Source of the DNA: a virus
Lineage: Duplodnaviria; Caudoviricetes
Virus record (IMG/VR): IMGVR_UViG_3300010412_000016
Span: 1-58,689 of that record
Direction: 5' to 3' (one strand)
Length of the DNA: 58,689 bases
A model generated the notes under the pieces. The model did no database searches, had not been told where the DNA came from, and worked only from the letters and a program-made list of their open reading frames with translations. Positions 3,330-32,236 of the stretch are shown piece by piece. The first letter of the stretch is position 1. Every line of letters starts with the position of its first letter. Both the position numbers and the translations under genes were made by a program.

Positions 3330-3357
3330 TTGTGGAACAGTTAAATTAAATTGTATT

Positions 3358-4087: not shown

Positions 4088-4135
4088 ATTAGTTAACAGT
4101 ATTTCCCTCGTTTATTTTTAAAGGAGAAACAGGTT

Positions 4136-4384: not shown

Positions 4385-4393
4385 TAGTTAAAT

Positions 4394-4477: not shown

Positions 4478-4478
4478 T

Positions 4479-4552
4479 GGGTAATTGGTGTAGTGGTCAA
4501 ACACGTTACCGTGACATGGTAAAGATCGCAGGTTCGATCCCTGCATTACCCA
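4479..4552 (+). tRNA. tRNA-Val(GAC)
   Basis: GGGTAAT/ATTACCC; TTACC-GTGACAT-GGTAA (unusual G32). Confidence 0.9.
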
Positions 4553-4565
4553 TCGGAGATATATT

Positions 4566-5210
4566 ATGAATACTTTGATAGAATTACAAAATCACTATCA
4601 ATTTGATACGGACAAACAAGTTCACCACCAATATCTAACTGAATATGATAAATGGTTTTTACCGCGCAAGTATCAAACCGGATACTTGCTGGAATTGGGT
4701 GTCGCTCGAGGCGGCAGTTTATTGTTGTGGCAAAAATACTTTGAGCATATGAACATCGTTGGAATGGACAGAAATCCGCTTGGTACAGATGTGTATGGAA
4801 ATTTTCCAGATCACACACCATCACTTCCAAGTAGAACGTTCTTTATACAAAAAAATTCATATGAAACCAACACAGTAACATATCTCGCAGACGCTTATAA
4901 ACCATTTAATATTATTATTGATGATGGATCACACGAACTTCGTGATCAACAGTTTGTTGTTACTAACTATCACAAATTAATACAAAACGGGCTTCTTATA
5001 ATTGAAGATGTAATTCGTGCAAATATTATCGCACTACTAGAAACCTGTTACAATGTACTTCGTCATAGAACATTTACATTGACTATGGTCGACAACAATA
5101 ACGCTCGTAGGGTTCCACCTGACAGATCTACATTGCAAAATTATGGAAACATAGAACTTCAATATTCCACTTCCGATGATGTGTTGGTTTGTATAGAACT
5201 GTTTTACTGA
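4566..5210 (+). CDS. class I SAM-dependent methyltransferase
   Basis: LLELGVARGGS, IIIDDGSH, GLLIIED motifs. Confidence 0.85.
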   Translation: MNTLIELQNHYQFDTDKQVHHQYLTEYDKWFLPRKYQTGYLLELGVARGGSLLLWQKYFEHMNIVGMDRNPLGTDVYGNFPDHTPSLPSRTFFIQKNSYETNTVTYLADAYKPFNIIIDDGSHELRDQQFVVTNYHKLIQNGLLIIEDVIRANIIALLETCYNVLRHRTFTLTMVDNNNARRVPPDRSTLQNYGNIELQYSTSDDVLVCIELFY

Positions 5211-5228
5211 AAGCTGGAGAATACTTAC

Positions 5229-5453
5229 ATGAAATTTTATATCGTACGAATGTTTTTTGAAAATGAATCAACTGATCAGCCCGATTTACAAGTATTTGAC
5301 AACCAAGAAGATATGGGTGATTTTGTAAGTTCGATACTCAACGTTCCTTCAATAGATAAAATTGAAGTGTTTGAAACGTCTACTATTCATAAGACGATAG
5401 AACTAAAAAATTTTAAACAAGTTGATAATGAAAATATCAAATATGTATCTTAA
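5229..5453 (+). CDS. hypothetical protein
   Basis: GGAG RBS; 74 aa ORF. Confidence 0.6.
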   Translation: MKFYIVRMFFENESTDQPDLQVFDNQEDMGDFVSSILNVPSIDKIEVFETSTIHKTIELKNFKQVDNENIKYVS

Positions 5454-5454
5454 T

Positions 5455-5638
5455 GGAACCGTGGGTGAATTGGACAAAACCAGCAGTTAATGAATTGGAA
5501 AGTCGGCTGAGATGGTGGGCAGCACTGGTTTGCTAAACCAGCTTACAAGTAAAATTGTAATAAGCGTTCGAATCGCTTACTTTCCGTGAGCCTTCCGATT
5601 GAAAGGTCGGATTACAGGTTCGAGCCCTGTCGGTTCCG
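5455..5638 (+). pseudogene. split tRNA-Ser shell whose anticodon loop is replaced by a complete tRNA-Ser(GCT)
   Basis: 5' half GGAACCG, D arm, GCAGTT (5455-5488); 3' half variable arm TCCGATT-GAAA-GGTCGGA, T arm ACAGG-TTCGAGC-CCTGT, CGGTTCC-G (~5590-5638). Confidence 0.8.
5497..5586 (+). tRNA. tRNA-Ser(GCT), nested
   Basis: GGAAAGT/ACTTTCC, G73; CTGGT-TTGCTAA-ACCAG; variable arm TTACAA/TTGTAA; AAGCG-TTCGAAT-CGCTT. Confidence 0.92.
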
Positions 5639-5671
5639 TGCTTAACTAAACAAAACGAAAGGTAAAATAAT

Positions 5672-6154
5672 ATGAAATTTTTAAGAAACTTTGCACTTCT
5701 TTTCACCGCTGTGCTGTTGTTTACAGCGGCATGTGGTGATGATGTAACGGTTGTTGGGCCACCGGCTCGAGACACGTTGCAGGTGCCAGTACTTATCAAA
5801 CATGATACCGTTTTTGTATACGATACAATTTTCGTACATGACACGGTTCAAGTTGAGAAGATTGTACACGATACGATAATCAAGACTGTTGTGGATACAG
5901 TTGAAAAGATTGTAGTTAAGTGGGATACGCTTGTTGTTACCCGCGTAGATACAGTAACAAAGACTGTGACAGATACTATTGTCAAAGTTGATACGGTAGT
6001 TAAGTTTAGAGTAGATACTGTATTCAAGGATGTTATTAAGTGGGATACGGTGTTTGTAACCAAGACCGATACGGTCTATTTACCAACTCCTCCGTGTGAC
6101 CCAACGAAGCCGCCGGGTCAGCAACCCAAAGAATGTCGGCCAATTAAGCCGTAG
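5672..6154 (+). CDS. lipoprotein with ~8-aa (H/V)DT(V/I) repeats
   Basis: Signal peptide ending TAA-C; many DTV/DTI/DTL repeats; Pro-rich C-terminus. Confidence 0.8.
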   Translation: MKFLRNFALLFTAVLLFTAACGDDVTVVGPPARDTLQVPVLIKHDTVFVYDTIFVHDTVQVEKIVHDTIIKTVVDTVEKIVVKWDTLVVTRVDTVTKTVTDTIVKVDTVVKFRVDTVFKDVIKWDTVFVTKTDTVYLPTPPCDPTKPPGQQPKECRPIKP

Positions 6155-6163
6155 TACAAATTG

Positions 6164-6197
6164 AACGGTGGGTGGGTAAATTCACCCACCGTTTTTT
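6164..6197 (+). terminator. intrinsic terminator
   Basis: AACGGTGGGTG...CACCCACCGTT followed by a T run. Confidence 0.85.
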
Positions 6198-6211
6198 AAT
6201 CTTTATACGAA

Positions 6212-6299
6212 GGAAATGATCTGGCTGGATGAAGAGCTTGATTCGAAATCAAGTATTGCTTATTATTAAGCATTGTGGGTTCGAGTCCCACCGTTTCCG
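6212..6299 (+). tRNA. tRNA-Ser(CGA)
   Basis: GGAAATG/CGTTTCC, G73; CTTGA-TTCGAAA-TCAAG; long variable arm. Confidence 0.9.
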
Positions 6300-6304
6300 T
6301 ACAT

Positions 6305-6378
6305 ACGCTTGTAACTCAGTTGGACAGAGTACCACGCTACGAACGTGGGTGCCGGGGGTTCGAATCCCTCCAAGCGTA
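6305..6378 (+). tRNA. tRNA-Arg(ACG)
   Basis: ACGCTTG/CAAGCGT; CCACG-CTACGAA-CGTGG. Confidence 0.95.
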
Positions 6379-6403
6379 TTTTAAATCTTTAAAGGAGTTT
6401 CTA

Positions 6404-6940
6404 ATGAGAGTTTATATTGGTCCGTTTCGTGATGATAATGAATCACACAACGAATGGCGTCCTACCGAACCATTTGAACGAGATATTCGAATTAATATTG
6501 ATGATTACGATGTGTGGAACATGGATACAACACTTGCGATGATTATTCATCCCATGTTAATTAAACTAAAAGAAATTAAAAACGGTCATCCGTGTATACA
6601 AAAGATGCATAAGGATGCTCCATGCGTAATTAATCAAGACTGTAATTGTAATGAGGAATGGAATACGATTCTTGACAAAATGATTTGGTCTTTCAAACAA
6701 CAATTTGATACGTCTGAAGAGGATCAGTATTATAGTGGTGATCTTGTTTGGGAGGACGAATTAATTCCTACCGATGGAGCCGGTAACGTTGTACCCAAAG
6801 AAGAAGCTACGTTTTTTAGGATGGTTAAAAGCCCAAAAGATACGTTTAAAATTGACACCGATGGACTTACAAAACACTACGAACGAATTCAAGAAGGACT
6901 TGATTTATTCGCTAAATATTATCAAAGCTTATGGGACTAA
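6404..6940 (+). CDS. conserved phage hypothetical protein
   Basis: AAAGGAG RBS; D.YDVWNMD.TLA.II.PML...GL.LF.KYY..LWD pattern familiar from T4-like phages. Confidence 0.7.
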   Translation: MRVYIGPFRDDNESHNEWRPTEPFERDIRINIDDYDVWNMDTTLAMIIHPMLIKLKEIKNGHPCIQKMHKDAPCVINQDCNCNEEWNTILDKMIWSFKQQFDTSEEDQYYSGDLVWEDELIPTDGAGNVVPKEEATFFRMVKSPKDTFKIDTDGLTKHYERIQEGLDLFAKYYQSLWD

Positions 6941-6946
6941 TTATAT

Positions 6947-7019
6947 GGCAGTGGGGAGGCAGGTAAGTCTCAAAACGACTCATAACCGTTTTTAGGCCGT
7001 TCGATTCGGCACACTGCTA
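6947..7019 (+). tRNA. tRNA-Met(CAT), elongator or Ile2 type
   Basis: GGCAGTG/CACTGCT; AACGA-CTCATAA-CCGTT; TTCGATT T-loop. Confidence 0.8.
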
Positions 7020-7040
7020 TTTTTTTAATGGAGAAACACC

Positions 7041-7328
7041 ATGTTTTTATTCAGAGATTATGTTAGAGAAGAAGTTGCTCGTATGGTAATGGAAGTCACA
7101 GATAGAGAAATAACAACTTCTGTAGCACGGGAGACTGCCAAAACTCTTGGATTAGATTTTTCTAAATTGGAGTTTTCATTTGAAGATTTTGCAGAAGGAA
7201 TGCGAGTTGAAATGGAGCACAAAGACATAACAGGTGGTGATCCAATTAAAACTGCTAAAATAGCATTGGCTCATCTTCGAGAACGACCAGATTATTACAC
7301 GCAATTAAAAAAACACGTAGAAAATTAA
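7041..7328 (+). CDS. DUF5661-like protein
   Basis: GMRVEMEH...AKIALAHLRERPDYY..L motif. Confidence 0.7.
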   Translation: MFLFRDYVREEVARMVMEVTDREITTSVARETAKTLGLDFSKLEFSFEDFAEGMRVEMEHKDITGGDPIKTAKIALAHLRERPDYYTQLKKHVEN

Positions 7329-7329
7329 T

Positions 7330-7605
7330 ATGCCACCATTTTATAAACAAGTTTTGTCGTTTGTTGAAGAGATGTGGATTGCAGTTAAATTTCGCCTATC
7401 CAATAAATATATTAAAGTGGATTCGGCAATACAACAACAACGATGGAATGTCTGTCAATCATGTGTATTTTTTCAACGAGGTCGTTGTTCTAAATGCGGA
7501 TGTTTCATGAAACTAAAAACGCAATTAGCAAGTGCATCGTGTCCCGAAAACAAATGGTCGGCAACTATTATCACCACAGACGAATGTGAAATATGTCCAC
7601 CCTAG
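7330..7605 (+). CDS. Cys-rich protein (DUF6171-like)
   Basis: R..VC.SC...RC.KCGCF...K......CP..KW. Confidence 0.7.
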   Translation: MPPFYKQVLSFVEEMWIAVKFRLSNKYIKVDSAIQQQRWNVCQSCVFFQRGRCSKCGCFMKLKTQLASASCPENKWSATIITTDECEICPP

Positions 7606-7706
7606 TTTTTTACTTAGAGAGCCAGATCATAATCTTGAACCGTGGAATCATAATTCGGATTGGATCGCATTTGCAAAAGAACCAATTAAAGAATAATACG
7701 TGGTAT

Positions 7707-7791
7707 GCATCCGTGCATGGAACCGGTAGACAGGACAGACTCAAAATCTGTTGCTCAACTGAGCGTGGGGGTTCGAGTCCCTCCGGATGCA
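7707..7791 (+). tRNA. tRNA-Leu(CAA)
   Basis: GCATCCG/CGGATGC; ACAGA-CTCAAAA-TCTGT; long variable arm. Confidence 0.93.
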
Positions 7792-7816
7792 TTTTACATT
7801 TATGAAAGGTAATGTT

Positions 7817-8377
7817 ATGCTTGTAGATGATATATACAACCAACGATGTGTAGAACCGGGTGACATATACGAATTACTTCCATTATTATACAAATACGCA
7901 TCAAAATGTTCACATGTAACGGAATTTGGTGTAAGGTCATTGGTATCTACATATGCACTTTTGGCAGCAAGACCGCATACTGTTATTTCGTATGATCATA
8001 TTCATCCAGACGCAACCGGAGGTAATTTACAACAAGCCATCGATGCCGCGACCGAAGCTGGTGTTACGTTTATTTTTCGGCAAGAAGATACATTACGTAT
8101 CACTATTGAACCAACAGATATGTTATTTATTGATACACTACACACGTATGATCAATTAAAACAAGAATTAGCACTTCATGCAGATAAAGTACGAAAATAT
8201 TTAGTATTTCATGACACTTCTATAGATTCGTGGGGAATGGGTGGAGAATTGAATAGTTTCGGATTGTGGTTCGCCATTAAAGAATTTCTCAGAGACAATC
8301 CAAATTGGGATGTACTTGAAAAAGTTGAGTATTGTGCTGGATTGACTGTTCTAGTTAAAGATGAATTTACTAAATAA
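7817..8377 (+). CDS. class I SAM-dependent methyltransferase (Methyltransf_24-like)
   Basis: VTEFGVR, DMLFIDTLHTY, LVFHDT motifs. Confidence 0.8.
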   Translation: MLVDDIYNQRCVEPGDIYELLPLLYKYASKCSHVTEFGVRSLVSTYALLAARPHTVISYDHIHPDATGGNLQQAIDAATEAGVTFIFRQEDTLRITIEPTDMLFIDTLHTYDQLKQELALHADKVRKYLVFHDTSIDSWGMGGELNSFGLWFAIKEFLRDNPNWDVLEKVEYCAGLTVLVKDEFTK

Positions 8378-11875: not shown

Positions 11876-12157
11876 ATCATAACAAACGTATATAGAGTTT
11901 CCGTACACCATGATCATGCCGACACGCCATCCCATCATAAGGCACTTACACGAGTTGTACCGAATTTAACAAGTGCTATAAACTTGGTAAGAATGATGGG
12001 AGATCACTACGAAAAGTTTTACAACGACAACCCAGAAACAGATGATCATGTAAAGGTTACAATATCTATTATACCAACTGAATCTGTATCTCGGGTGGAA
12101 TCTGATTGCGTGTCCCGTACAATGACTGGTAATGCACCCACAACACTACTTAGATAA
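11876..12157 (+). CDS. hypothetical protein with a probable non-AUG (ATC/ATA) start
   Basis: 94-codon stop-free frame filling the gap, preceded by SD-like GGGGGTGA; first ATG only at codon ~40. Confidence 0.45.
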   Translation: MITNVYRVSVHHDHADTPSHHKALTRVVPNLTSAINLVRMMGDHYEKFYNDNPETDDHVKVTISIIPTESVSRVESDCVSRTMTGNAPTTLLR

Positions 12158-12180
12158 TATAAATTGTATCAAGGAGTGTT

Positions 12181-12441
12181 GTGGGTAACAATAATCGTCG
12201 TTTAACTTCTTATCAACTTATAAAAGAAATTCGAGAGGACTTGAATTTTACAAAAATCAAATTAGATTTATTCATACGTTATGGAATAGGATCATCAAAT
12301 GATGAATTATTGAATGATGATAAAACGTATGATTGGTTTAATTATCTCCATTGGAGAAAAGAACGAATGAACAGAGAGACTGGAAAAAGCGAGGTAATTG
12401 CATGGGATTTCCAAAAAAGAGAAGAGGACGACGAAAAATAG
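12181..12441 (+). CDS. hypothetical protein
   Basis: AAGGAG RBS, GTG start. Confidence 0.6.
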   Translation: MGNNNRRLTSYQLIKEIREDLNFTKIKLDLFIRYGIGSSNDELLNDDKTYDWFNYLHWRKERMNRETGKSEVIAWDFQKREEDDEK

Positions 12442-12506: not shown

Positions 12507-13796
<1,290 letters not shown>

Positions 13797-18320: not shown

Positions 18321-18623
18321 ATGGCACGTTCAAAGAACACTTTCACTCGTCCACGTAGTTTCACGAACAAGGAACGCGCACAGATGACAAACAAGATCCG
18401 TACGTATCTTCGTTCGTTGTCTAACCGTCGTTCGAATGGCTATGTTTCTGCCGACGATGTTCATACCTATCTTACTAGGGAGAACGTTCTTCCGGGTCAG
18501 GTTCGTACCCGTCTTTCGTTCATTAATTCGGTTCTTCGTGAACCCGATTTTGAACCAGTCGATACTGTTCCTTCCAGTCGACCGGCTGCGAAGGGCAGAA
18601 TGATTACGGCTTGGACAGCCTAA
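18321..18623 (+). CDS. small basic putative DNA-binding protein
   Basis: Arg-rich; GAGG RBS; own promoter and terminator. Confidence 0.6.
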   Translation: MARSKNTFTRPRSFTNKERAQMTNKIRTYLRSLSNRRSNGYVSADDVHTYLTRENVLPGQVRTRLSFINSVLREPDFEPVDTVPSSRPAAKGRMITAWTA

Positions 18624-18640
18624 GTCATAAAGTCTGACTG

Positions 18641-18682
18641 AATAGATAATGGTGTGAATTTACGTTCACACCATTTCTATTT
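18641..18682 (+). terminator. probable intrinsic terminator
   Basis: AATGGTGTGAA-TTTACG-TTCACACCATT hairpin with T-rich tail. Confidence 0.7.
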
Positions 18683-18713
18683 ATATTTATAGGTAGTTTT
18701 GTAAGGAGCTTTT

Positions 18714-19868
18714 ATGAAGTTACATTTATTTGGATTACCACATACAATTACTACAAACGAATACAGTCATTGTGCATATACCGGAAAAATTAAACGGTTT
18801 GCTCCAATGTTACGTTCTGTTGGATATGAAGTGATTCATTATGGTGTGGCTGGAGCAGATTCCGGGGCCAATACTCAAGTGGATTTACTTTCGTATACAG
18901 AGTGGATGGATATTCTTCATAGAATGGCCAAGAGTTTATATCCCGACAGAGATGAGAGTCAATTACTTTCAAAGAAAAACTTTTTTCAAGATTTCGTTCG
19001 CCCCAACAGTGAGTTGTATACTGAATTTAATAAACGATTGGAATATCATCTAATACAGCATTATGAAGCAGGGGATATTATTTGTTTACCTTTTGGACAA
19101 GCACACGATGATGCATTGGTACGACATTTTCAGGGTGCTATAAAAGTAGAAACTGGTATTGGATATGAACATTCATATCAACCATATCGTATTTTTGAAA
19201 GTTATGCATGGTATCACTATACCGCTGGCAAACAGAACCAGTTTTATGGAAGTGATTATTGGTTTGTTATTCCAAATTACTATGATTTGAGTGAGTGGGA
19301 ATTCAATCAAACTCCCAAACGATATGTAGCCTTTATGGGACGTTTGATTGATACTAAGGGATTGAGTATTTTTGTAGAAATGGCTCGTCGAAGACCCGAC
19401 TTAAAATTTATTATGTGTGGTCAGGGTGATCCGACTCCGTGGTTGGTTCTTCCGAACATTGAATATCAAGAACCAAAACACGGACTAGAACGTTCAGAGT
19501 TTCTTGGTAACGCATTGGCATTTTTTGCAGGAAGTCGTTATATTGAACCGTTTGGTGGAGTCGCCGTTGAAGCACAACTGTGTGGTACCCCAGTACTGGG
19601 TTCTGGATTTGCATGTTTCACCGAAACAATTGAACATGGAATGACAGGATATAATTGTCACACGCTTGGTGATTTTTTAGTAGGACTGGAGGCCATTGAA
19701 AAAGGCACCGTAATAAATCGTAATTATGTTCGTTATAGAGCATCACAATTATATGACATGTATAAAGTGGCACATCAATATGATGCGGCATTTAGACAAA
19801 TTTTGGATGTAAGTCAAGACGGTTGGTTTAAACCTGTGTCATATACTACATATCGTTATAGAGTATAA
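18714..19868 (+). CDS. GT-B (GT4-like) glycosyltransferase
   Basis: AFMGRL..TKG, EPFGGVAVEAQLCGTPV, ETIEHG.TG. Confidence 0.9.
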   Translation: MKLHLFGLPHTITTNEYSHCAYTGKIKRFAPMLRSVGYEVIHYGVAGADSGANTQVDLLSYTEWMDILHRMAKSLYPDRDESQLLSKKNFFQDFVRPNSELYTEFNKRLEYHLIQHYEAGDIICLPFGQAHDDALVRHFQGAIKVETGIGYEHSYQPYRIFESYAWYHYTAGKQNQFYGSDYWFVIPNYYDLSEWEFNQTPKRYVAFMGRLIDTKGLSIFVEMARRRPDLKFIMCGQGDPTPWLVLPNIEYQEPKHGLERSEFLGNALAFFAGSRYIEPFGGVAVEAQLCGTPVLGSGFACFTETIEHGMTGYNCHTLGDFLVGLEAIEKGTVINRNYVRYRASQLYDMYKVAHQYDAAFRQILDVSQDGWFKPVSYTTYRYRV

Positions 19869-19939: not shown

Positions 19940-20179
19940 ATGAATAAAGATGAATCCAAAAATATTAAAATACAACTTATTTTTGAGTTAGGACCAGTAA
20001 CCACAGTAATACTAGTTCAATTGATGTTGGTACTATTAAAAATTACTAACTACTTACCAACATGGTCATGGCCTACAGTTTTTATACCTATTTGGATAGT
20101 GTTACTAATTATATGTGGGACTGTAATCTTGGGGTTTTTATATTGGGTTGCGACGACATTTATTCTTAGACGTAAGTAA
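19940..20179 (+). CDS. small membrane protein
   Basis: LLKI....WSW..VFIPIW pattern, two TMs. Confidence 0.65.
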   Translation: MNKDESKNIKIQLIFELGPVTTVILVQLMLVLLKITNYLPTWSWPTVFIPIWIVLLIICGTVILGFLYWVATTFILRRK

Positions 20180-20188
20180 AGGAGTTCG

Positions 20189-20296
20189 ATGAACATTTCA
20201 GTAATTGATACAATTAATGATATCGCTGTCATTGCTGTTACTGTCTTGGTCATTTTTTGGGGATTTGCGTTAGTAGACCGCGAACGTAAAAACTAA
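20189..20296 (+). CDS. 35-aa membrane peptide
   Basis: AAGGAG RBS; single TM. Confidence 0.5.
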   Translation: MNISVIDTINDIAVIAVTVLVIFWGFALVDRERKN

Positions 20297-20298
20297 AG

Positions 20299-20640
20299 GG
20301 GTCCGTTTGGTATCGACAGACGTTTAAAAATAAAAAGTGGCGTGTCGGGAATAATTCAATCCCGTAAAATGAATTAAAATACATAAAAGCAAACGAAACA
20401 TTTGCCCTTGCTGCTTAAGTCAGCAACCTCTTTTTAGTTTTTCTCACGGATTAAAATAGAGGCCGATAGTGAGGCTGAATACGAGAAGTTCACGCATCGT
20501 AACTCAGAGTAAGTGAATAGTTAGTCGAAGAGTTGAGCGGTTTTCTCAAAGACAACGATGTATAATAAAACCGCTATACACACGTAGATACTTTTATGAG
20601 TAAGATGGACTGGACAAGGGTTCGAATCCCTTCGGATCCA
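20299..20640 (+). ncRNA. ssrA: tmRNA, tag ANETFALAA
   Basis: Acceptor GGGTCCG/CGGATCC-A with G3-U70; TCGAC after the 5' stem; T arm AAGGG-TTCGAAT-CCCTT; tag frame GCA...GCT GCT TAA at 20389-20418. Confidence 0.95.
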
Positions 20641-20656
20641 TACTGGAGGAAATGAT

Positions 20657-20866
20657 ATGGAAAGCGCAATGGATTATGTAGTAATTATAGGTGCAGCAGC
20701 ATTTGCCATATTTATTATATGGAATATGTTTTTTAAAGATATGTTTTCAAATCCCGGTAATCCGGGTGGTAGCGGGGGTGGTACTGGCGGCGGTACTGGT
20801 GGTGGCACTGGTGGCGGAACTGGTGGTGGCGATAGTACCGACGACGAAGAAATAATTTTACCTTAA
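20657..20866 (+). CDS. small membrane protein with (GGGT)n repeat
   Basis: GGAGG RBS; TM followed by Gly/Thr repeats. Confidence 0.7.
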   Translation: MESAMDYVVIIGAAAFAIFIIWNMFFKDMFSNPGNPGGSGGGTGGGTGGGTGGGTGGGDSTDDEEIILP

Positions 20867-20881
20867 TAGGAGTTACACTAT

Positions 20882-21118
20882 ATGAAGAAGTTATTGTGGC
20901 TGGGATTAATTTTTGTATTGGCATGTAAACCCACACCGTCTGGTGGTGGTACTGGTGGCGGGACTGGTGGTGGCACTGGTGGTGGCACTGGTGGCGAAAA
21001 CGGTGGTTGTGATCCAGAAACCGCAGTTGAAACTTGCGATGGTTCTGACCCACGTGCCGAAATGTCTGCCGGACGTACTGATTCGGTTGTCATTTCTATT
21101 GACACTACTGGAAATTAA
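20882..21118 (+). CDS. lipoprotein with (GGGT)n repeat
   Basis: AGGAG RBS; lipobox VLA-C; Gly/Thr repeats. Confidence 0.7.
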   Translation: MKKLLWLGLIFVLACKPTPSGGGTGGGTGGGTGGGTGGENGGCDPETAVETCDGSDPRAEMSAGRTDSVVISIDTTGN

Positions 21119-21127
21119 TTAAAAACA

Positions 21128-21217
21128 TTCATAACGGAAACGCGAAGATGGTGTGCTTCGCGCCGAATGGGGATAAGGACTGATTCGGGCAAATGGTGAC
21201 AATATTTCCGTTATGAG
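21128..21217 (+). ncRNA. unassigned three-helix structured RNA
   Basis: TCATAACGGAAA/TTTCCGTTATGA closing CGCGAAG/CTTCGCG and CCGAAT/ATTCGG. Confidence 0.55.
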
Positions 21218-21265
21218 TACTTTTTGTAAATCCGATTCGTTAATTCGGAATTATAAATGTGGGGC

Positions 21266-21310
21266 TTGACAAATAAACGATATTGTAGTATATTTAGTAT
21301 CGTTCTTTGA
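21266..21310 (+). promoter_or_regulatory. sigma70-type promoter plus boxA-like element
   Basis: TTGACA-N17-TATATT, then GTTCTTTGA at 21302-21310. Confidence 0.75.
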
Positions 21311-21311
21311 G

Positions 21312-22207
21312 AGGTAGGAAGTAACGGGCTGTTTGGAGTCCGTAATCATAATACGAGGTAACCCGTATAAAGGGGGATTGGCACCTCACCGCCCCGCCTG
21401 ACGTAAGTTGGGAGAATCCAAACAAGCCACATTCAGTTACCCGCGAGGGTAATGTATCGGATGAAACCGGTAATAGGCTGGAAGTGTGTGAAAGGGAAAG
21501 AACCTTAGCTTAAGTGCCACGATTCAGTTCGGCTGGCGTGGGAACACTTGCAAGGAAAGACTGACGGGTGGTGCCGGGATCCTTTCAAACCAACACACGA
21601 CAGAGTATGAACAAGTGGTAATCAATTAGTGCAAGCGGGGGACCGTGAGTGTTAATTGGTAGTATGAGTGGATCTGGTTTCCCAGCGGATTCCAAAGAGG
21701 AGCCAGAATCACAAAATACGAAGGAGTACCTTCACAGGGAAACTTAGCAGTGGAGTGTCGCATTTCGATGTTCAAAAGATATCGAAACGACTGGAGGCGC
21801 ACTTCACGGAGGTTAACAGCTAGGTAGCTTGAAACTACCACAAGAATTTGGATCTTGTACATTTCAAAAAAAGGAAAGACGCCTCCGGTGCTACGCGAAA
21901 AGGTTTCTTGAAGTAGCGTAACGCCAGACTTCTTCGGAAGAATCTGGCAGGGTTATTGTCCCCAAGACGATGATTCTTCAATCGGCATCCGCACATAACG
22001 GGGTAGCTCCCGTGAACGGCTCGCAAGGTCGGTGGTAGGATTAAGGTTGAGTAACGTAGCATGACAGTCTCACCGCAGAGACTTTAATAAACGCCGCTAT
22101 GATTCTTTACCTACATGAGTAGGTGGATACGAGAAGAACGGTGGGATGGGAATCCCATTGATAATGTCTCAAAAGGAGAATCACAAAGGCTGTAATCTCA
22201 AGCCTTC
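21312..22207 (+). ncRNA. large structured ncRNA, probably GOLLD RNA
   Basis: ~900 nt with no credible ORF and elevated GC; many helices (GGCTGTTTGGA/TCCAAACAAGCC, TTACCC-GCGA-GGGTAA, GCCAGA/TCTGGC with a TTCG loop, terminal AAGGCT-GTAATCTCA-AGCCTT); own promoter; directly followed by tRNAs. Confidence 0.7.
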
Positions 22208-22211
22208 TCTT

Positions 22212-22280
22212 GCGGCCTTAGTGTTAATGAGCACGGTTGGCTTCCAGCCGACAGGTCCGGTTCAAATCCGAGAGGTCGCT
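22212..22280 (+). tRNA. tRNA-Gly(TCC), degenerate copy
   Basis: GCGGCCT/AGGTCGC, U73; GTTGG-CTTCCAG-CCGAC; D-loop lacks GG; imperfect T stem. Confidence 0.7.
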
Positions 22281-22311
22281 CTTCGAGCTAAATAGTATAG
22301 TTATAATACAC

Positions 22312-22383
22312 GGCCCTATCGTCTACTGGCTAGGATGCGACCCTTTCAAGGTCGAGAAACGAGATCGATACTCGTTAGGGCTA
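22312..22383 (+). tRNA. tRNA-Glu(TTC)
   Basis: GGCCCTA/TAGGGCT; CGACC-CTTTCAA-GGTCG; T-loop ATCGATA (A54). Confidence 0.9.
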
Positions 22384-22389
22384 TTTCGA

Positions 22390-22461
22390 CGCGGGGTAGA
22401 GAAGTAGCAACTCGTCACGCTCATAATGTGAAGATCGTGGGTGCAAATCCCACCCCCGCCA
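22390..22461 (+). tRNA. initiator-like tRNA-fMet(CAT)
   Basis: CGCGGGG/CCCCGCC with C1:C72 mismatch; TCACG-CTCATAA-TGTGA; T-loop TGCAAAT. Confidence 0.85.
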
Positions 22462-22521
22462 TTTTTAAACAAACATGAAAAAACACGATATTTATTGATA
22501 CAACCCAATGGGGAGTTATCA

Positions 22522-22809
22522 ATGACTAACGTGTTTGACCGTTATGGTAATATGGTCGCAAAAACAAATGGTAGTGAATTATTTGACCGATATCATAATT
22601 TAGTGGGTTATATTGACACCAAAGCGGTGTACGATAGATTTAAAAATATGATTGGACATTTACGACCAGCTTCATTTGGGATAGATGTATTTGACCGATA
22701 TGGTAATAAAGTCGGTTCATATGAAAATGGATTAGTAAAAGATCGATATGGAAATATGATAGGTGGTTGTGGCATTGCAGCAGGTGCAGCATACTTACTA
22801 CTTATATAA
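22522..22809 (+). CDS. repeat protein ((F/Y)DRYGN x5; beta-flower-like)
   Basis: Five DR(Y/F)xN repeats; C-terminal AAGAAYLLLI; GGGAG RBS. Confidence 0.65.
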   Translation: MTNVFDRYGNMVAKTNGSELFDRYHNLVGYIDTKAVYDRFKNMIGHLRPASFGIDVFDRYGNKVGSYENGLVKDRYGNMIGGCGIAAGAAYLLLI

Positions 22810-22813
22810 GTGA

Positions 22814-22958
22814 TGTGGATAGAACTTCTATAGCCCCGCCACAGGCTTTTAAAGTACAACGGGGTTGCCCCTAGAAAGAGTTCAATTCCACACAAGAACC
22901 AGTAAAGTCCTTGTGAACGTCTGGGTTAATAAAACGTGGTTTTACAGACTAGGGGCAA
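22814..22958 (+). ncRNA. unassigned structured element with alternative folds
   Basis: Rod TGTGGA..GAACT..TCTA..TAGCCCCG / CGGGGTTG..TAGA..AGTTC..TCCACA competes with TTGCCCCTAG/CTAGGGGCAA plus GTAAAGTC/GGTTTTAC. Confidence 0.55.
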
Positions 22959-22959
22959 T

Positions 22960-23030
22960 GCCTTCATGGTGTAGCAGGAACACGACAGCCTTCCAAGCTG
23001 TAGTCATCGGGGCAGAACCGATTGGGGGCT
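22960..23030 (+). tRNA. tRNA-Gly(TCC), non-canonical T-loop GGCAGAA
   Basis: GCCTTCA/TGGGGGC, U73; ACAGC-CTTCCAA-GCTGT; ATCGG/CCGAT T stem. Confidence 0.85.
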
Positions 23031-23057
23031 CTGAGTTTATGGGTAAAAAGTGAGGAC

Positions 23058-23086
23058 TTGACAAAAACTCATATATAGTGTATATT
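23058..23086 (+). promoter_or_regulatory. sigma70-type promoter
   Basis: TTGACA-N17-TATATT. Confidence 0.8.
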
Positions 23087-23098
23087 TATACATGTAGT

Positions 23099-23288
23099 AA
23101 AAACTTAGCTAATGGTAATCACGCGGTTGGAGCTTTATACTAATATTTGCTTTACTGTAAACAGTACGTAGACTGCTCTCGCGTTAACGGAATCTTAAAG
23201 GGTGTCCGAACGGAGCACCGCCGTTGAGTAAAGAACATATTGATCCCTGACTCGTGTTTTCAATATGATTACCATTACTAAGTTTTTT
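23099..23288 (+). ncRNA. unassigned ~190-nt multibranch ncRNA
   Basis: AAAAACTTAG-C-TAATGGTAATCA pairs with TGATTACCATTA-CTAAGTTTTT; three internal domains; promoter 12 nt upstream; T run at the end. Confidence 0.7.
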
Positions 23289-23313
23289 ATATCCATTTCA
23301 AAAGGAAGGTTAT

Positions 23314-23598
23314 ATGGCTGCAATTGTTTCATTTGATCCGACACGTTCAGACGGGCCACAAATAGTTGAACATCCGGTATATCATTCAGATAACCCTCGA
23401 GTTGATCGACCATATGACAGTGATTGGAAAAAACCAAGTTTGAATATGTCAATTCCAATGTTGATTGCTGATCATGCTCCTGCAAGGATTGAAGAAATCA
23501 GCATTAAACTAAGAAAATTGGACGAACAAATTACTGAGTTGGAAAAAGAAAAAAGAATTCTGGATGAGTTACTAAAAGTTGTACAATCTTCTCGTTAA
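23314..23598 (+). CDS. hypothetical protein with C-terminal coiled coil
   Basis: AGGAAGG RBS; heptads. Confidence 0.65.
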   Translation: MAAIVSFDPTRSDGPQIVEHPVYHSDNPRVDRPYDSDWKKPSLNMSIPMLIADHAPARIEEISIKLRKLDEQITELEKEKRILDELLKVVQSSR

Positions 23599-23632
23599 TA
23601 ATTACTACTTATACTAAAGTGGGGAAACGGTT

Positions 23633-24112
23633 ATGAAACTGCGAAGAGCAACGTCAAAAAAACACGCTCGCCAAGTAATGAAAACTGGTAAGCAATGGTT
23701 GTTGTGTAGTAAATGTCAAGGCGCAGAAATGGAGGTTTTAGGAGATGTATCATCAGTTATTTGCAGTGACTGCGTACAACGAATGGTTCCTCCGCCGGAG
23801 CAAAAAACTATTAAGGCACATCTTGATAGTAATGGAGAAAAATTTCCCCGTGGTTGGCATCTCAAGAAGCGATTTGTCGCTTCAGATGGGACTGTATATG
23901 AACGAGGAAAAAAAGTCGGAGAATCAACCGGAAGTGACACAAAATCAGTTTCCGGAAAAAGAAATAAAGTTACAGGCGGAAGTAGAAAGCGTGGACGACC
24001 TCCAAAGTCTGCGAAGTCGAGTGCTGGAAAGCGTGGACGGCCCCCAAAGCTTACAAAACTCGTCAGCAAGTCAAAAGGACGTCGAGGGCGTCCTCCAAAA
24101 CGTAGAAAATGA
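23633..24112 (+). CDS. Zn-ribbon plus triple AT-hook protein
   Basis: CSKC...CSDC; RKRGRPPK, KRGRPPK, RRGRPPKR. Confidence 0.75.
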   Translation: MKLRRATSKKHARQVMKTGKQWLLCSKCQGAEMEVLGDVSSVICSDCVQRMVPPPEQKTIKAHLDSNGEKFPRGWHLKKRFVASDGTVYERGKKVGESTGSDTKSVSGKRNKVTGGSRKRGRPPKSAKSSAGKRGRPPKLTKLVSKSKGRRGRPPKRRK

Positions 24113-24128
24113 TGTAGGAAAAATTTTA

Positions 24129-24428
24129 ATGATACCTCAGAGAATGGTAAAATCTTTGAGAAAATTTTTTCTGAATAATCCAGATGTAATGCACAAGTTT
24201 CTACTTAATAAAATTTCCACTGCAATTGAAAAAGATATTACAGAAGCTAAGTTATTTTATTTGGGAAATTTGGATACGCTTGCAACTATAAAGTATAATG
24301 ATTACGATAAAGTTTTAAATGATGCAATGGCATTTTTTATTAAAACCGAACAGTATGAATTGGCAGAGAAATGTAAGCAATCAATTACTACCCATACGAT
24401 AGAAAAACTAATTAAAAGTGTAAAATGA
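24129..24428 (+). CDS. hypothetical protein with UVR-like C-terminal motif
   Basis: EQYELAEKCK; probable start ATG 24129 (the longer ORF overlaps the previous gene). Confidence 0.55.
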   Translation: MIPQRMVKSLRKFFLNNPDVMHKFLLNKISTAIEKDITEAKLFYLGNLDTLATIKYNDYDKVLNDAMAFFIKTEQYELAEKCKQSITTHTIEKLIKSVK

Positions 24429-24441
24429 GTTGAGTATTTTT

Positions 24442-24951
24442 ATGTTAGAAACAATTAGATGTGTGGTGTTAAATTCCACCTATAGACCAATGCATGTAAT
24501 TCCGGCGAAACGTGCTCTGAAACTGTACTTTGAAGGTAAGGTACACATTGTTGAACAGCATCCTACGTATATGGTTCACTCAGTTCGGGCAAGTTGGCCC
24601 GTTCCAATTATAGTAGCATTGAAGAAATTTATTAAGGAGCGGGTTGGTCCTGCGATTCTTACGAAGAGAAATTTGTTTATTCGTGACAAATACACTTGTC
24701 AATATTGTGGTCGTGCTAAGAGCCAATTTAAACCACAGGAATTTTTAACCGTTGATCATGTCATACCACAAGCACGAGGCGGTACAAATACGTGGTTGAA
24801 TGTAGTTAGTGCATGCTCTACATGTAACAATTTGAAAGGCGATACACCACTTGAAAAAACTCGTATGCGCCTATTGACTAAACCTACAATTCCTACTATA
24901 TTCGAGATATGGAGTAAGTATCTTTCTAAAAAATATCATTTAACTGTATAA
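24442..24951 (+). CDS. HNH endonuclease (McrA-like)
   Basis: VLNSTYRP, RDKYTCQYCG, TVDHVIPQARGG, WLNVVSAC.TCN..KG. Confidence 0.9.
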   Translation: MLETIRCVVLNSTYRPMHVIPAKRALKLYFEGKVHIVEQHPTYMVHSVRASWPVPIIVALKKFIKERVGPAILTKRNLFIRDKYTCQYCGRAKSQFKPQEFLTVDHVIPQARGGTNTWLNVVSACSTCNNLKGDTPLEKTRMRLLTKPTIPTIFEIWSKYLSKKYHLTV

Positions 24952-24959
24952 AAATAGGA

Positions 24960-25619
24960 TTGATTATGGTTACGGAAGAACAAATTAAAGAACAATATGA
25001 ACGGTTTATGAAGTTGATTCAGGAAGATTCTCGTAATGAGAATTTACTGAAAATGTATGAAGTTTTGGGAGAACGGCTTATAGAAGCTCCCGCTTCATCT
25101 CGCATTCACTTTCATAACGCATTTCCGGGCGGCTATCTCGATCACGTGCTGAGCGTATACGATGCCGCCCTTCGCGTTGCGAAACTGTTTAAGGAACTCG
25201 GCGGCGTGCTAAATTTTACCAAACAAGAATTAACAATGGCTGCACTTCATCACGATTTGGGTAAGTTGGGAGACTTAGACCAGCCATATTATTTGGATCA
25301 AGATTCCGATTGGCATCGTCGGCGCGGCGAAGTTTTTAAAATGAATGATGCCCTACAATTTATGCACGTTCCGGACAGAGCATTGTTTTTACTTCAGCAT
25401 TTTGATGTTAAATTAACTAGAGCAGAATGGTTATCTATAAAACTATCTGATGGTATGTATGATGATGGAAATAAGGCATATTTAAAGCATGTTCCATATC
25501 CATATTCAATGCACACCAATCTACCATACATCATTCACACCGCTGATTATTTGGCTTGTAGTGCGGAACGTGATCAGAGCAGAATTAATCTTGAGGATGA
25601 TTCTACAAGCGAGAGTTAA
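24960..25619 (+). CDS. HD-domain phosphohydrolase
   Basis: APAS...HNAFPGGYLDH, LHHDLGK, IHTAD. Confidence 0.85.
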   Translation: MIMVTEEQIKEQYERFMKLIQEDSRNENLLKMYEVLGERLIEAPASSRIHFHNAFPGGYLDHVLSVYDAALRVAKLFKELGGVLNFTKQELTMAALHHDLGKLGDLDQPYYLDQDSDWHRRRGEVFKMNDALQFMHVPDRALFLLQHFDVKLTRAEWLSIKLSDGMYDDGNKAYLKHVPYPYSMHTNLPYIIHTADYLACSAERDQSRINLEDDSTSES

Positions 25620-25796
25620 ATGTTTGGATATATGATTGCATGGACAATTATAATAGCATTTTTAGCCGAAATGATTTCGCAACAACATGGGAATGAGTGG
25701 GGTTATGTAACGATTTGGATATTGTCGGGATTAGTAGTTAGATTGTATGATAAAATTAAAAAATACGAACGTGAAAATTTTATGGAAAACGATTAA
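25620..25796 (+). CDS. small two-TM membrane protein
   Basis: 58-aa ORF abutting the HD gene. Confidence 0.55.
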   Translation: MFGYMIAWTIIIAFLAEMISQQHGNEWGYVTIWILSGLVVRLYDKIKKYERENFMEND

Positions 25797-25826
25797 AACC
25801 GAACTATTAAATATATTTATAGGTGT

Positions 25827-25875
25827 GAGATTGCCCACTTGGGAATCTCCAAATCAACGCCCATGATGGGGTTGA
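25827..25875 (+). promoter_or_regulatory. hsp20 leader with tandem bulged-G hairpins
   Basis: GAGATT-G-CCCA-CT-TGGG-AATCTC and TCAAC-G-CCCA-TGA-TGGG-GTTGA, after TATTTATA (25814-25821). Confidence 0.6.
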
Positions 25876-25899
25876 AAATTTAACAAAAGGAGGTCTTAT

Positions 25900-26397
25900 A
25901 TGACAAATTTAATGCGCAAGAGCGGTACACCTGTTACGGTACTTAGAAACAGAGACAATTACATTAATTCATTTGACAGAATTTTTGATGAAATGTTTAA
26001 AACAACATTTCCAGAAATTTTTAAAATTTCGGGAATTGAAACCATCGATGGTGGATACCCAAAAGTTAATGTAATGTCATATCCAGAATCAATTGTTATT
26101 GAAGCAGAGATTGCTGGTATGGACAAGAAGGACATTTCTGTTGATGTAAATATTGAGCATGGTGAGAAATATCTTACCATTAGAGGCTCCAAATCAACGG
26201 ACGTATCGGAAAAAAATGAAGATGAAGTTGTATATCTTCGTAGAGAGTTGAAGCGTTCATCGTTTAGTAGAACGTTCCACGTAGGAAATACTCTCAATCT
26301 TGATAACATTAGTGCTGAATTTAATAATGGGTTACTAACCATTACCATCCCAAAGATGGAAAAGGAGACAGGTGTTACAAAAGTAGAAATTAAATAG
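25900..26397 (+). CDS. small heat-shock protein (Hsp20/alpha-crystallin)
   Basis: YPKVNV, AEIAG..K.DI.V, LTI.G, RE..RSSF.RTF, ISA.F.NGLL.ITIPK. Confidence 0.95.
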   Translation: MTNLMRKSGTPVTVLRNRDNYINSFDRIFDEMFKTTFPEIFKISGIETIDGGYPKVNVMSYPESIVIEAEIAGMDKKDISVDVNIEHGEKYLTIRGSKSTDVSEKNEDEVVYLRRELKRSSFSRTFHVGNTLNLDNISAEFNNGLLTITIPKMEKETGVTKVEIK

Positions 26398-29044: not shown

Positions 29045-30160
29045 ATGAGTCGTATTATTAACGAAACTTTGACGTTTGATGACGTACAAATTTTACCGGA
29101 GTACAGTAGTATAAGAACACGAGACAGCGTATGCTTGAAAACTCGTTTTACTAAACAATATCAAATTGAAATTCCATATGTAGCATCGTGTATGCCAGAT
29201 GTATGTGAAGTTGACATGGCATGTGCTATGTGGCATGCCGGTGGAGTTGGTGTTATCCACCGATTCATGACCATTGACGATCAGTCAAGAATGGTTGAGA
29301 GCGTGTGGAAACATATTAAGGATGAACTGTCACGTTGGCCGAATAGAAAACAGGATAGACATTTTGATCCAATTAGTTTACGTAAAGACTATCCTGTTGT
29401 TGCCGCGGCAATTGGTGCTGTAGATGATTATTTTTCACGAGCAGTATCACTACTCATGTCGGGTGCAAATGTACTCATGTTGGATGTGGCACATGGGCAT
29501 CACGAAAATGTTAAAGTGGCAATGGGTGAATTAATCAAACTTAGAAATGAATATAGTTTTGATATCATTGCTGGTACAATTGCTACATCCCAAGCGGCGT
29601 TGGATTTGATTGATTGGGGTGCAGATGCATTGCGAGTTGGTGTCGGGGGCGGCTCTGCCTGCGAAACACGAATACGAACTGGTATTGGCGTTCCACAATT
29701 ACAATCTGTTATGGATGTGGCGGAAGCTGCCGATACATACGACATTCCAATAGTATCTGATGGTGGTATTCGTTATCCCGGTGATGTGGCGAAGGCAATT
29801 GTTGCTGGCGCAGAAACCGTTATGATGGGAAATTTATTTGCTGGATGTGACGAATCTCCGGGTATGGAATTAGTGACTGGAAAGTGGCCCGACATCAAAA
29901 AGCAACGTATTTATAAGGGTGCTGCTTCAGCCAGTCAAAAACTGGGATATAATGGAGCAGTTAGTTATGTAGAAGGTGCTACAAAGATTATTGACGCACG
30001 CGGTCCTGTTTCCGAAATGATCAAGAGCTTGGAAGAAGGACTTCGTTCGTCATTAAGTTATGTGGGTGCAGAAGATATAGAACAGTTTCAAAGTAAGGCG
30101 CGTTTTATTAGAATTACTAATGCAGGAATGATTGAAGCACACCCACATATGTTATATTAA
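29045..30160 (+). CDS. IMPDH/GMP reductase family enzyme (no CBS domains; GMPR-like flap)
   Basis: LTFDDV, DVAHGH, GVGGGSACETR, SDGGIR..GD, GLRSSLSYVG. Confidence 0.9.
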   Translation: MSRIINETLTFDDVQILPEYSSIRTRDSVCLKTRFTKQYQIEIPYVASCMPDVCEVDMACAMWHAGGVGVIHRFMTIDDQSRMVESVWKHIKDELSRWPNRKQDRHFDPISLRKDYPVVAAAIGAVDDYFSRAVSLLMSGANVLMLDVAHGHHENVKVAMGELIKLRNEYSFDIIAGTIATSQAALDLIDWGADALRVGVGGGSACETRIRTGIGVPQLQSVMDVAEAADTYDIPIVSDGGIRYPGDVAKAIVAGAETVMMGNLFAGCDESPGMELVTGKWPDIKKQRIYKGAASASQKLGYNGAVSYVEGATKIIDARGPVSEMIKSLEEGLRSSLSYVGAEDIEQFQSKARFIRITNAGMIEAHPHMLY

Positions 30161-31822: not shown

Positions 31823-32236
31823 ATGTCGGCCTTTGAAAATACAATATTTGATGATAAAACGTTGGCTGATATGTTTAGAGATGTGTATAATAATACTGAA
31901 TCTAAACGTAAACAAATCAACGAGTTTATTAAAAAAATGGCAATGATGATCAAGACCCCGGAGGATGCGGTGATCTTAGGTCCCGTCATTGCCGATTTTT
32001 TTGAAGTAAATGTTAAAAACGACGAACATTTGGTTCGTATGGCCCAGATAGCACAACGGGTGGTTTCAATAAGTACAAAATTAAGTAATTCCAACGAAAT
32101 CCTTACGGAGTTGGAAAAAGAGCAATTACTTAATGAACTTCATGTGGAAGTGGCCGAAGTTAAAAAGCAAGCACAGGCACTTGATGATGAATTTGACGAG
32201 TTAAGTATAAATTATGCCTCAAGATTGGTTAAGTAG
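31823..32236 (+). CDS. conserved hypothetical helical protein
   Basis: VKNDEHLV.MA.I.QR pattern; first gene of the structural operon. Confidence 0.65.
   Translation: MSAFENTIFDDKTLADMFRDVYNNTESKRKQINEFIKKMAMMIKTPEDAVILGPVIADFFEVNVKNDEHLVRMAQIAQRVVSISTKLSNSNEILTELEKEQLLNELHVEVAEVKKQAQALDDEFDELSINYASRLVK

Follow-up and report, generated by a model that had tools for sequence, protein, structure and literature searches.

A structured RNA element of about 190 nt behind a near-consensus promoter in the tRNA/tmRNA island of a large phage

The RNA-gene island and its promoters

The window analysed here is a virus contig from IMG/VR, taken over its whole length of 58,689 nucleotides (58.7 kb), which we estimate to represent ~29% of a large phage genome and which carries all of its genes and promoters on the + strand. 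The nearest cultured relative that we found, Flavobacterium phage vB_FspM_immuto, is distant, sharing 41.6% identity in an HD-domain protein. RNA genes crowd window positions 1–8000 and 20300–23030, and ARAGORN called 16 tRNAs in the window. An initial annotation had drawn attention to an RNA of about 190 nt within an island that also holds tmRNA, a GOLLD-like RNA and tRNAs, a setting borne out by Rfam and ARAGORN. This element (gene stretch 23058–23292) is the last member of the island, preceded by tmRNA, GOLLD, tRNAs and a tRNA-like gene, and is followed by protein-coding genes. The features around it are:

20299–20643, tmRNA
21750–22204, GOLLD RNA (Rfam match, RF02032), the sole GOLLD match in the window
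22960–23030, tRNA-like gene (Rfam, 47 bits; uncalled by ARAGORN), ending 28 nt before the promoter of the element
23058–23086, + strand, sigma-70-type promoter (TTGACA at 23058–23063, 17-nt spacer, TATATT at 23081–23086)
23314–23598, + strand, ORF of 94 aa, 22 nt after the RNA, with ribosome-binding site (RBS) AAGGAAGG at 23303–23310 and the AGGTTAT-ATG start context
23633–24112, + strand, zinc-ribbon ORF of 159 aa encoding a conserved protein, two genes downstream of the element
1.1 kb downstream of the element, HNH gene (small homing-type endonuclease)

The near-consensus sigma-70 promoter that had been proposed to precede the RNA was found where the initial annotation had placed it, and matches the consensus at 11 of 12 positions. 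The motif TTGACA-N17-TATATT, allowing at most one mismatch, occurs 11 times in the window, always on the + strand, compared with 1.49 copies expected, and none of 100 shuffled sequences reached this number. Eight of the 11 copies sit 25–50 nt before an ATG in the usual AGGTTAT start context, while the remaining three precede RNA genes, namely tRNA-Gln, GOLLD and the ~190-nt element; GOLLD, with the identical promoter motif, lies in the same island 900 nt upstream of the element. The fold described below begins 12 nt after the −10 box, and transcription would start near 23092–23094, ~5 nt before the first helix.

Predicted fold and its conservation in a second phage

The RNA predicted in this stretch comprises 189 nt (23099–23287), and its core is a four-way junction of helices P1–P4, with joining strands of 1, 1, 10 and 0 nt. 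Its parts are given below, together with differences from a homologous copy on L051, a 6.3-kb metagenome contig of a related, clearly different phage:

23099–23120, + strand, 5′ strand of P1, forming the 21-bp terminal helix with 23267–23287; C23109 bulged
23122–23183, + strand, P2 arm, with P2a (CGCG/CGCG) formed by 23122–23125 and 23180–23183
23126–23128, + strand, GUU bulge of P2, conserved
23129–23133 with 23175–23179, + strand, P2b (GGAGC/GCUCU)
23134–23174, + strand, distal P2, variable in sequence and length (41 nt here, 34 nt in L051)
23185–23226, + strand, P3 arm, with P3a (UAACGG/CCGUUG) formed by 23185–23190 and 23221–23226
23191–23200, + strand, one-sided internal loop of P3, 10 nt (AAUCUUAAAG), of which one of the ten positions differs in L051
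23201–23219, + strand, P3b hairpin (GGUGUCC-GAAC-GGA-G-CACC), with loop GAAC and a one-base bulge
23227–23236, + strand, J3/4, a junction strand of 10 nt (AGUAAAGAAC) with one difference in L051
23237–23266, + strand, P4 hairpin, with a 7-bp stem (AUAUUGA/UCAAUAU) and a 16-nt loop (UCCCUGACUCGUGUUU)
23267–23292, + strand, 3′ strand of P1 (23267–23287), then UUUUUUAUAU, the candidate 3′ end

The minimum free energy of this RNA (−57.6 kcal/mol) was well below that of 200 dinucleotide shuffles (−40.1 ± 4.4 kcal/mol; z −3.95), none of which folded as well. A window-wide scan of 2926 segments of 200 nt placed the element at about −2.8 sd from the regression on GC content, a residual calculated from the fit, the 40-nt step having missed the element itself. 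The opposite strand folds about equally well (−55.2 kcal/mol, z −5.5), as is expected where almost every pair is Watson-Crick. There is no ORF of at least 30 aa on the + strand inside the fold.

Much of the architecture had been anticipated by the initial annotation. The terminal helix of ~22 bp with one bulged C and a U-run end is confirmed as a 21-bp helix with C23109 bulged, and the three domains said to be enclosed by it all lie at the positions given, but they meet P1 in a four-way rather than a three-way junction. On the other hand, the proposed inner hairpin of P2, UACUG-UAAA-CAGUA (or alternatively UUUGC/GUAAA), is not conserved in L051. A further proposal, the long-range pairing of CUUUACU at the P2 tip with AGUAAAG in J3/4, can form 7 bp in the window, but L051 did not confirm it, the counterpart there being a 6-bp UUUUUU/AAAAAA pairing in a register shifted by three. 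Pairing between J3/4 and the distal P2 loop is therefore only suggestive, since the strands are A/U-rich and only two sequences are available.

At its 3′ side, helix P1 runs into the TTTTTT at 23283–23288, while the L051 copy ends in ...GUUUUCUUUUCC with UUUUCUUUUCC as its U-rich stretch. Read as a terminator, P1 is not textbook: it encloses ~145 nt, its base is A-U-rich, and the U-run is partly paired with the 5′ A-run. A consensus scan of the 20–25 kb region returned five terminator-like sites compared with 3.9 expected, and P1 with its U-run is missing from these because the enclosed part far exceeds a loop of 3–8 nt.

The second copy was found with a single-sequence covariance model of the window element (R1), run on 31 metagenome loci that had been fetched via alignment of the 159-aa zinc-ribbon protein. 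R1 matched one of the 31 (L051:2805–2990, 151.1 bits, E 5e-38), and this contig keeps the promoter, the spacing, the fold, the loop sequences and the downstream gene order. Protein identities between the window and L051 are 80% for HNH, 74% for HD, 47% for a beta-flower protein, 46% for the zinc-ribbon protein and 24.5% for the small ORF after the RNA, and the DNA common to both, in the flanking genes, is 52–73% identical. Folded alone, the L051 RNA reached −64.1 kcal/mol (z −5.96, 0 of 200 shuffles), and the same architecture was predicted for it independently. Three copies of the promoter motif lie on L051, compared with 0.09 expected, and one of them, an exact copy at L051:2767–2795, ends 11 nt before P1 of the homologue. 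The initial annotation had credited the RNA with its own promoter, which agrees with the enrichment of the motif in the window and its presence before the L051 homologue. As far as the two sequences tell, the promoter is real and conserved and is kept at a fixed distance from the fold.

Covariation was the check named beforehand in the initial annotation, and the second phage provided it. The alignment built with the model covers 60 pairs, of which 50 were comparable; the other ten lie in the variable P2 tip. Of these 50 pairs, in a single comparison of two sequences, 35 were unchanged, two had one-sided changes (G-C/G-U), 13 had compensatory double changes and none was broken. None of 500 shuffles reached these values, and sliding the 3′ partners by 1–3 columns left only 0–2 double changes and 37–50% pairing. 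Given that the model-based alignment is fitted to the model, we repeated the test with a model-free MAFFT alignment and RNAalifold, which agreed on the helices and on all 13 core pairs and added two alignment-dependent pairs in the variable P2 tip.

The double changes are distributed over P1 (8), P2a (1), P3a (3) and P3b (1). In P1 (helix 1; 21 pairs, none broken), seven of the inner nine pairs changed, and the outermost pair, A-U in the window, is G-C in L051. P2a and P2b (helices 2 and 3) together had one double and one one-sided change, P3a (helix 6) changed in four of its six pairs (three double, one one-sided) and P3b (helix 7) had its one double change, again with no pair broken, while the seven pairs of P4 (helix 8) never vary. 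Sequence conservation is concentrated elsewhere in the molecule: almost invariant are outer P1 with the bulged C, the GUU bulge and P2b, the P3 internal loop, the P3b loop, J3/4 and P4. The outer 12 nt of the P1 5′ strand (AAAACUUAGCUA) are the same in both phages, and in P4 the stem is invariant and the loop has one substitution and one deletion in L051. On the MAFFT alignment we counted identical bases at 43 of 48 unpaired core positions, compared with 72 of 100 paired ones.

We consider it highly probable that the locus encodes a genuine RNA and that selection has maintained the fold described here. Chance is excluded, and from the comparison of the two copies we infer that selection acts on both the RNA fold and particular loop sequences. 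The + strand is the RNA strand: read from it, two conserved-helix pairs in the window are G-U, whereas the other strand would turn them into C-A, and the promoter points the same way.

These data also bear on the idea that the stretch works at the level of DNA, as a MITE, a set of protein-binding palindromes or a single-strand DNA signal, with the hairpins as a by-product. Three observations would suit such an element: almost every stem is a perfect inverted repeat, folding of the opposite strand is about equally favourable, and conservation of the outer stalk and of the P4 stem is seen in their sequence rather than in covariation. However, the compensatory changes fall in nested stems of 4–7 bp and are accompanied by G-U pairs possible on the + strand only, which is not the pattern of repeat homogenisation. 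In addition, the element is present as a single copy in the window, no target-site duplication is found at its flanks, and the promoter stands at a fixed distance. The 22-nt P1 arm occurs only once in 185,579 species genomes, in a coding gene of an unrelated MAG, which is a chance match. A DNA-level repeat element is thus very unlikely, and we give it scarcely any credence as an explanation of the locus.

Known RNA families and further copies

The initial annotation had recognised no known RNA class in the element, and the Rfam check on both copies agrees. With the 4227 models of Rfam 15 at gathering scores, the whole-window search gave no match at 23058–23292, and at E ≤ 10 both copies had only scattered matches of 11–20 bits to unrelated families, which differed between the copies. 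No Rfam model of GOLLD, ROOL or a ribozyme family matched either copy, and neither the tRNA model nor ARAGORN found a tRNA inside 23097–23290, where no tmRNA was called either.

Further copies were sought in viral and cellular sequences. Searched by blastn against 50,697 cultured-phage records, the element and the surrounding 20000–26000 region returned nothing, or only 53-nt promoter-like matches in Staphylococcus phages, and the L051 copy returned nothing. Around the genes of HD-protein relatives, 46 loci were searched with nhmmer and blastn, which found no homologue; R1, run on these 46 loci and the window, matched only the element itself, and it had no match in five whole virus records. 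A covariance model (R2) revealed no further copy in 74 loci (a set from which L008, L009, L050 and L051 were left out) and no match in Flavobacterium phage NC_055915. Six exact or degenerate patterns gave two matches in IMG/VR, both inside coding genes and both failing the model; such pattern scans see exact matches only, so that more distant homologues could be missed. Overall, no further copy was found in IMG/VR, the cultured phages or the 185,579 species genomes, and the element represents a family with two known members that is filed nowhere.

In the closest relative in IMG/VR (L004), a small ORF and homologues of the genes located downstream of the element in the window come immediately after the tmRNA, and the element is absent. 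With the closest other relatives lacking it, the RNA is therefore dispensable for the group.

Several known RNAs nevertheless resemble the element in some respects. GOLLD and ROOL are likewise phage-borne, promoter-driven structured RNAs beside tRNA genes, with a function that is similarly obscure, but they are at least four times larger and show no sequence or structure match to the element. Both are reported to form homo-oligomers (cryo-EM study PMC12286853). Inspection of the alignment by eye revealed no palindromic loop that the two copies of the element have in common. Phage T4 encodes small stable RNAs in its tRNA cluster, species 1 and 2, whose role is obscure. These are comparable to the element as small stable RNAs encoded with phage tRNAs, a likeness by description with no homology claimed.

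A closer analogy is offered by Y RNAs. According to PMC4201824, more than 250 species of bacteria and phages carry, in the vicinity of Ro60 genes, Y RNAs that have tRNA-like domains, and those of the YrlA type, as presented there, have 5′ and 3′ ends joined in a long conserved bulged helix with a multi-arm module on top, including phage examples. The element could accordingly be imagined as a Y-RNA-like or tRNA-mimicking particle, whose stalk would bind Ro60/Rsr or another RNA-handling enzyme and whose arms would mimic tRNA as a scaffold or decoy. Its long end helix with a single bulged C, conserved sequence and U-rich 3′ end would suit this role, the junction strands of 1, 1, 10 and 0 nt recall a cloverleaf layout, the location in a tRNA/tmRNA island fits, and precedents near Ro60 genes are known from both phages and bacteria (PMC4201824). 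However, no Rfam family, tRNA included, fits 23097–23290 at E ≤ 10, and the element has no match to a Y RNA covariance model. In Y RNAs, a Ro-contact motif resembling GGUCCGA sits in the 5′ strand of the stem (PMC4201824), and a motif of this type is absent from P1; UCCGA occurs only in hairpin P3b, where the preceding base differs between the two phages. Moreover, a TROVE gene (PF05731) is absent from the window, which covers ~29% of the phage, while the control search found it in two of 14 named genomes. We regard a Y-RNA-like particle as quite unlikely.

A self-cleaving or catalytic RNA of a new type, which would excise itself from a polycistronic transcript, was also considered. The compact multi-helix junction with near-invariant unpaired nucleotides would be in keeping with this, and in an island without canonical terminators between genes, processing must release the RNAs. 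On the other hand, no Rfam ribozyme matches, the sequence offers no pointer to a cleavage site, and an RNA whose task is binding would be just as likely to conserve both its fold and its loops, so that we attach very little probability to catalysis. The element is a new family among the structured RNA genes of phage tRNA/tmRNA islands, and is filed under no known family.

Downstream genes and possible roles of the element

The genes behind the element are relevant to whether it acts on its own transcript. In L051, a small ORF starts 31 nt after the RNA and is followed by the zinc-ribbon ORF, the same order as in the window. Compared with 5.8 billion proteins, the 94-aa protein had no relative and matched only itself. 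Neither it nor the 159-aa protein had close relatives in IMG/VR or belonged to a Pfam or PHROG family, and the AlphaFold model of the 159-aa zinc-ribbon protein (mean pLDDT 69) had no PDB match at E ≤ 0.001. Retron, bridge-RNA and omega-RNA guide roles were tried and rejected, as the downstream ORFs scanned were without a reverse transcriptase, recombinase or TnpB-like family (Pfam, PHROG).

Between the RNA and the 94-aa ORF there is no room for another promoter, and the only internal promoter candidate, TTGATC-18-TATGAT, loses its −10 box in L051, where it becomes TATGGC. Therefore, some transcripts must read through into the ORFs. Contigs of three metatranscriptome runs from three studies (X15, X17 and X19) and of a DNA run (X7) were aligned to 20200–24500; the RNA contigs cover only GOLLD. 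Since tmRNA, tRNAs and ORFs of the phage are uncovered just like the element at 23058–23292, this gives no verdict on expression of the element, nor on the discrete, early-expressed transcript suggested by the initial annotation.

The main alternative to a stand-alone RNA is that the fold is a cis-acting 5′ leader of an operon comprising the 94-aa ORF, the zinc-ribbon ORF and later genes, and that it stays attached to the mRNA or is cut off, a reading that we hold as possible, although on the improbable side. Such a leader might work by attenuation at the stalk and U-run, possibly in dependence on a ligand or protein, or by shielding the mRNA at its 5′ end, and we put this forward with equal reserve. 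Both phages place the fold between the promoter and the same ORFs, 22–31 nt from the start codon, with no good independent ORF promoter conserved. All other mRNA promoters of this class lie 25–50 nt before an ATG, so that the fold resembles an insert in a promoter-ORF unit.

The four-way junction and the possible pairing of the P2 loop with J3/4 also resemble some riboswitch aptamers. SAM-I-class aptamers have a four-way junction in which a hairpin loop pairs with the strand joining P3 and P4, and the element shares with them four helices, a possible loop-J3/4 pairing and, in both phages, the position between promoter and ORF. In contrast to riboswitches of this type, however, it has no Rfam match, its closing helix has 21 bp instead of a few, it lacks a conserved expression platform, and the gene downstream is a poorly conserved orphan.

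Several points weigh against the leader more generally. A closing helix of 21 bp is far too stable for a switch, and no RBS-hiding hairpin or alternative pairing is common to both phages. For the 94-aa ORF, extended folds keep the same junction, and the small hairpin over the RBS in the window is without a counterpart in L051, so that no conserved hairpin hiding this RBS is shared by the two. The first gene is a fast-evolving orphan (24.5% identity), while the RNA loops are ~90% identical, which is the reverse of the usual pattern of a sensor and its gene, and relatives run the same ORFs directly behind tmRNA with no such element. Should the element prove to be a leader after all, control of this kind would be unusual for a phage operon, here one that lies directly behind tmRNA in related phages.

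A trans-acting RNA fits better than a sensor, because there is no conserved RBS-hiding hairpin and the next gene evolves far faster than the RNA. We favour a stand-alone molecule since the loops are more conserved than the next gene, the stalk is too stable to switch, and the element lies in an island of stable RNAs without canonical terminators between genes. Taken as a whole, the statement that 23058–23292 is the gene of a ~190-nt structured non-coding RNA that stands alone and acts in trans has, in our estimation, about an even chance of being correct.

As a stand-alone RNA, the element would be transcribed from ~5 nt before P1 and released as a discrete, stable molecule, with its ends set by the terminal stalk and the U-run. 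Release could occur by termination at the U-rich stretch behind the stalk, or a double-strand cut in the stalk could free the RNA from a longer transcript. A stalk of 21 bp suits the double-strand-specific RNase III. Once released, the RNA may work in trans by offering a binding platform to another molecule, either a protein or an RNA, that belongs to the translation or RNA-processing machinery. Contacts would be made through the outer part of the stalk including its bulged C, the internal loop of P3, J3/4 and the loop of P4, and a pairing of J3/4 with the variable tip of P2 may lock the junction.

The stable-RNA islands of large phages are only partly understood: tRNAs and tmRNA are explained, while GOLLD and the like are not. 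The element adds a small, well-defined member to such an island, with a clean promoter, clear borders and loops more conserved than any neighbouring protein. At ~190 nt it suits probing, structure work and partner fishing, and offers a more tractable entry than the 800-nt RNAs beside it.

A more specific version of the trans-acting reading, which we consider unlikely but worth stating, is that there is a new phage RNA class, with the two copies as its founding members, built as a cloverleaf-like four-way junction on a conserved bulged stalk, through which the phage would decoy, or provide a scaffold for, a host enzyme that handles RNA or takes part in defence. Such an enzyme might be a nuclease directed at tRNA, a processing nuclease or a ring protein of the Ro type. 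In that case, the tRNA/tmRNA tool kit of the phage would be extended by molecular mimicry.

Transcription of the GOLLD region and a shared promoter class

Contigs from three metatranscriptome studies, compared with window positions 20200-24500, matched the GOLLD region (21342-22183) with 0-1 differences, and gave zero cover of the ORFs, tRNAs and tmRNA of the phage.

RNA contigs matching the GOLLD region
X15: window 21364-22178
X17: window 21342-22141
X19: three pieces

This confined cover suggests a GOLLD transcript of ~840 nt, with its 5' end shortly past the promoter at 21266-21294 and its 3' end just short of the tRNA-Gly gene (22212). The match to the Rfam GOLLD model was confined to the 3' 455 nt of this transcript, ending at 22204.

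A motif search of the window recovered 11 copies of the promoter motif TTGACA-N17-TATATT, 11/11 of them on the plus strand and frequently extended by TATATTTA.

Promoter motif starts
2306, 4059, 11138, 15085, 18237, 19883, 21266, 23058, 24874, 27672, 50003; plus strand; TTGACA-N17-TATATT

This class drives mRNAs and RNA genes alike, and L051, a 6.3-kb metagenome contig from a related phage, carries three copies at places matching those in the window. In its consensus the motif follows the classical sigma-70 pattern, although the host of the nearest cultured relative is a Flavobacterium.

A tRNA-like gene, its upstream spacer and the P4 loop

The tRNA-like gene at 22960-23030, which duplicates the tRNA-Gly(UCC) at 22212, carries CUUCCAA as its anticodon loop (UCC, Gly), and its T-loop is odd; it scored 47 bits in Rfam and was not called by ARAGORN. 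Its counterpart in L051 (2296-2368) had a normal tRNA score of 62.5 bits. The 130-nt spacer separating the beta-flower gene from this tRNA-Gly-like gene was conserved in both phages (window 22833-22958; L051:2166-2296), with an invariant hairpin, GCCCCG/CGGGGU, a 9-bp helix, UGCCCCUAG/CUAGGGGCA, that encloses a variable middle, and two compensatory pairs between the window and L051. The thermodynamic signal of the spacer was weak (z -1.3) and it had no Rfam match; it may be another RNA element outside the filed families, or else a stalk that serves in processing.

Among the contigs of the DNA run X7, two that were identical and of low depth ended at 23241 and resumed at 23269, leaving the P4 hairpin loop of the folded RNA element without cover. 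This gap (23242-23268) may reflect low cover or strain variation within the loop.

A zinc-ribbon protein family near phage tmRNA genes

The window ORF at 23633-24112 and its relatives in L051-L081, loci from a metagenome scan, belong to one family, whose small members measure 98-175 aa. Their N-terminus is basic, the zinc ribbon has the form CxxC...CxxC, the motif P-x-G-W-H is invariant, and the tail, rich in lysine and arginine, contains GRP repeats in the window and L051. The family had no Pfam or PHROG assignment, and a PDB fold search with the predicted model returned no match. Among 16 loci scanned with Rfam, the gene lay a few hundred bases past a phage tmRNA gene in 15, L051 being the exception. 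These might be tmRNA- or RNA-associated proteins.

Other structured stretches and further genes

In a 200-nt sliding fold scan of the window, six stretches stood out as having the most structure relative to their G+C content (-3 to -3.8 sd). Part of them fall between ORFs, counting ORFs of at least 150 aa, and none of the six had a match in the Rfam scan of the window.

Structured stretches from the fold scan
18481-18760, plus strand
12121-12320, plus strand
6041-6280, minus strand
21081-21320, plus strand
49841-50040, plus strand
31841-32040, plus strand

The phage also encodes an adenylosuccinate synthetase of full length (440 bits) and a member of the IMP dehydrogenase/GMP reductase family (336 bits), along with several glycosyltransferases and an Hsp20.

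Positions of the two enzyme genes
Adenylosuccinate synthetase; IMP dehydrogenase/GMP reductase family: 12537-13796 and 29045-30160
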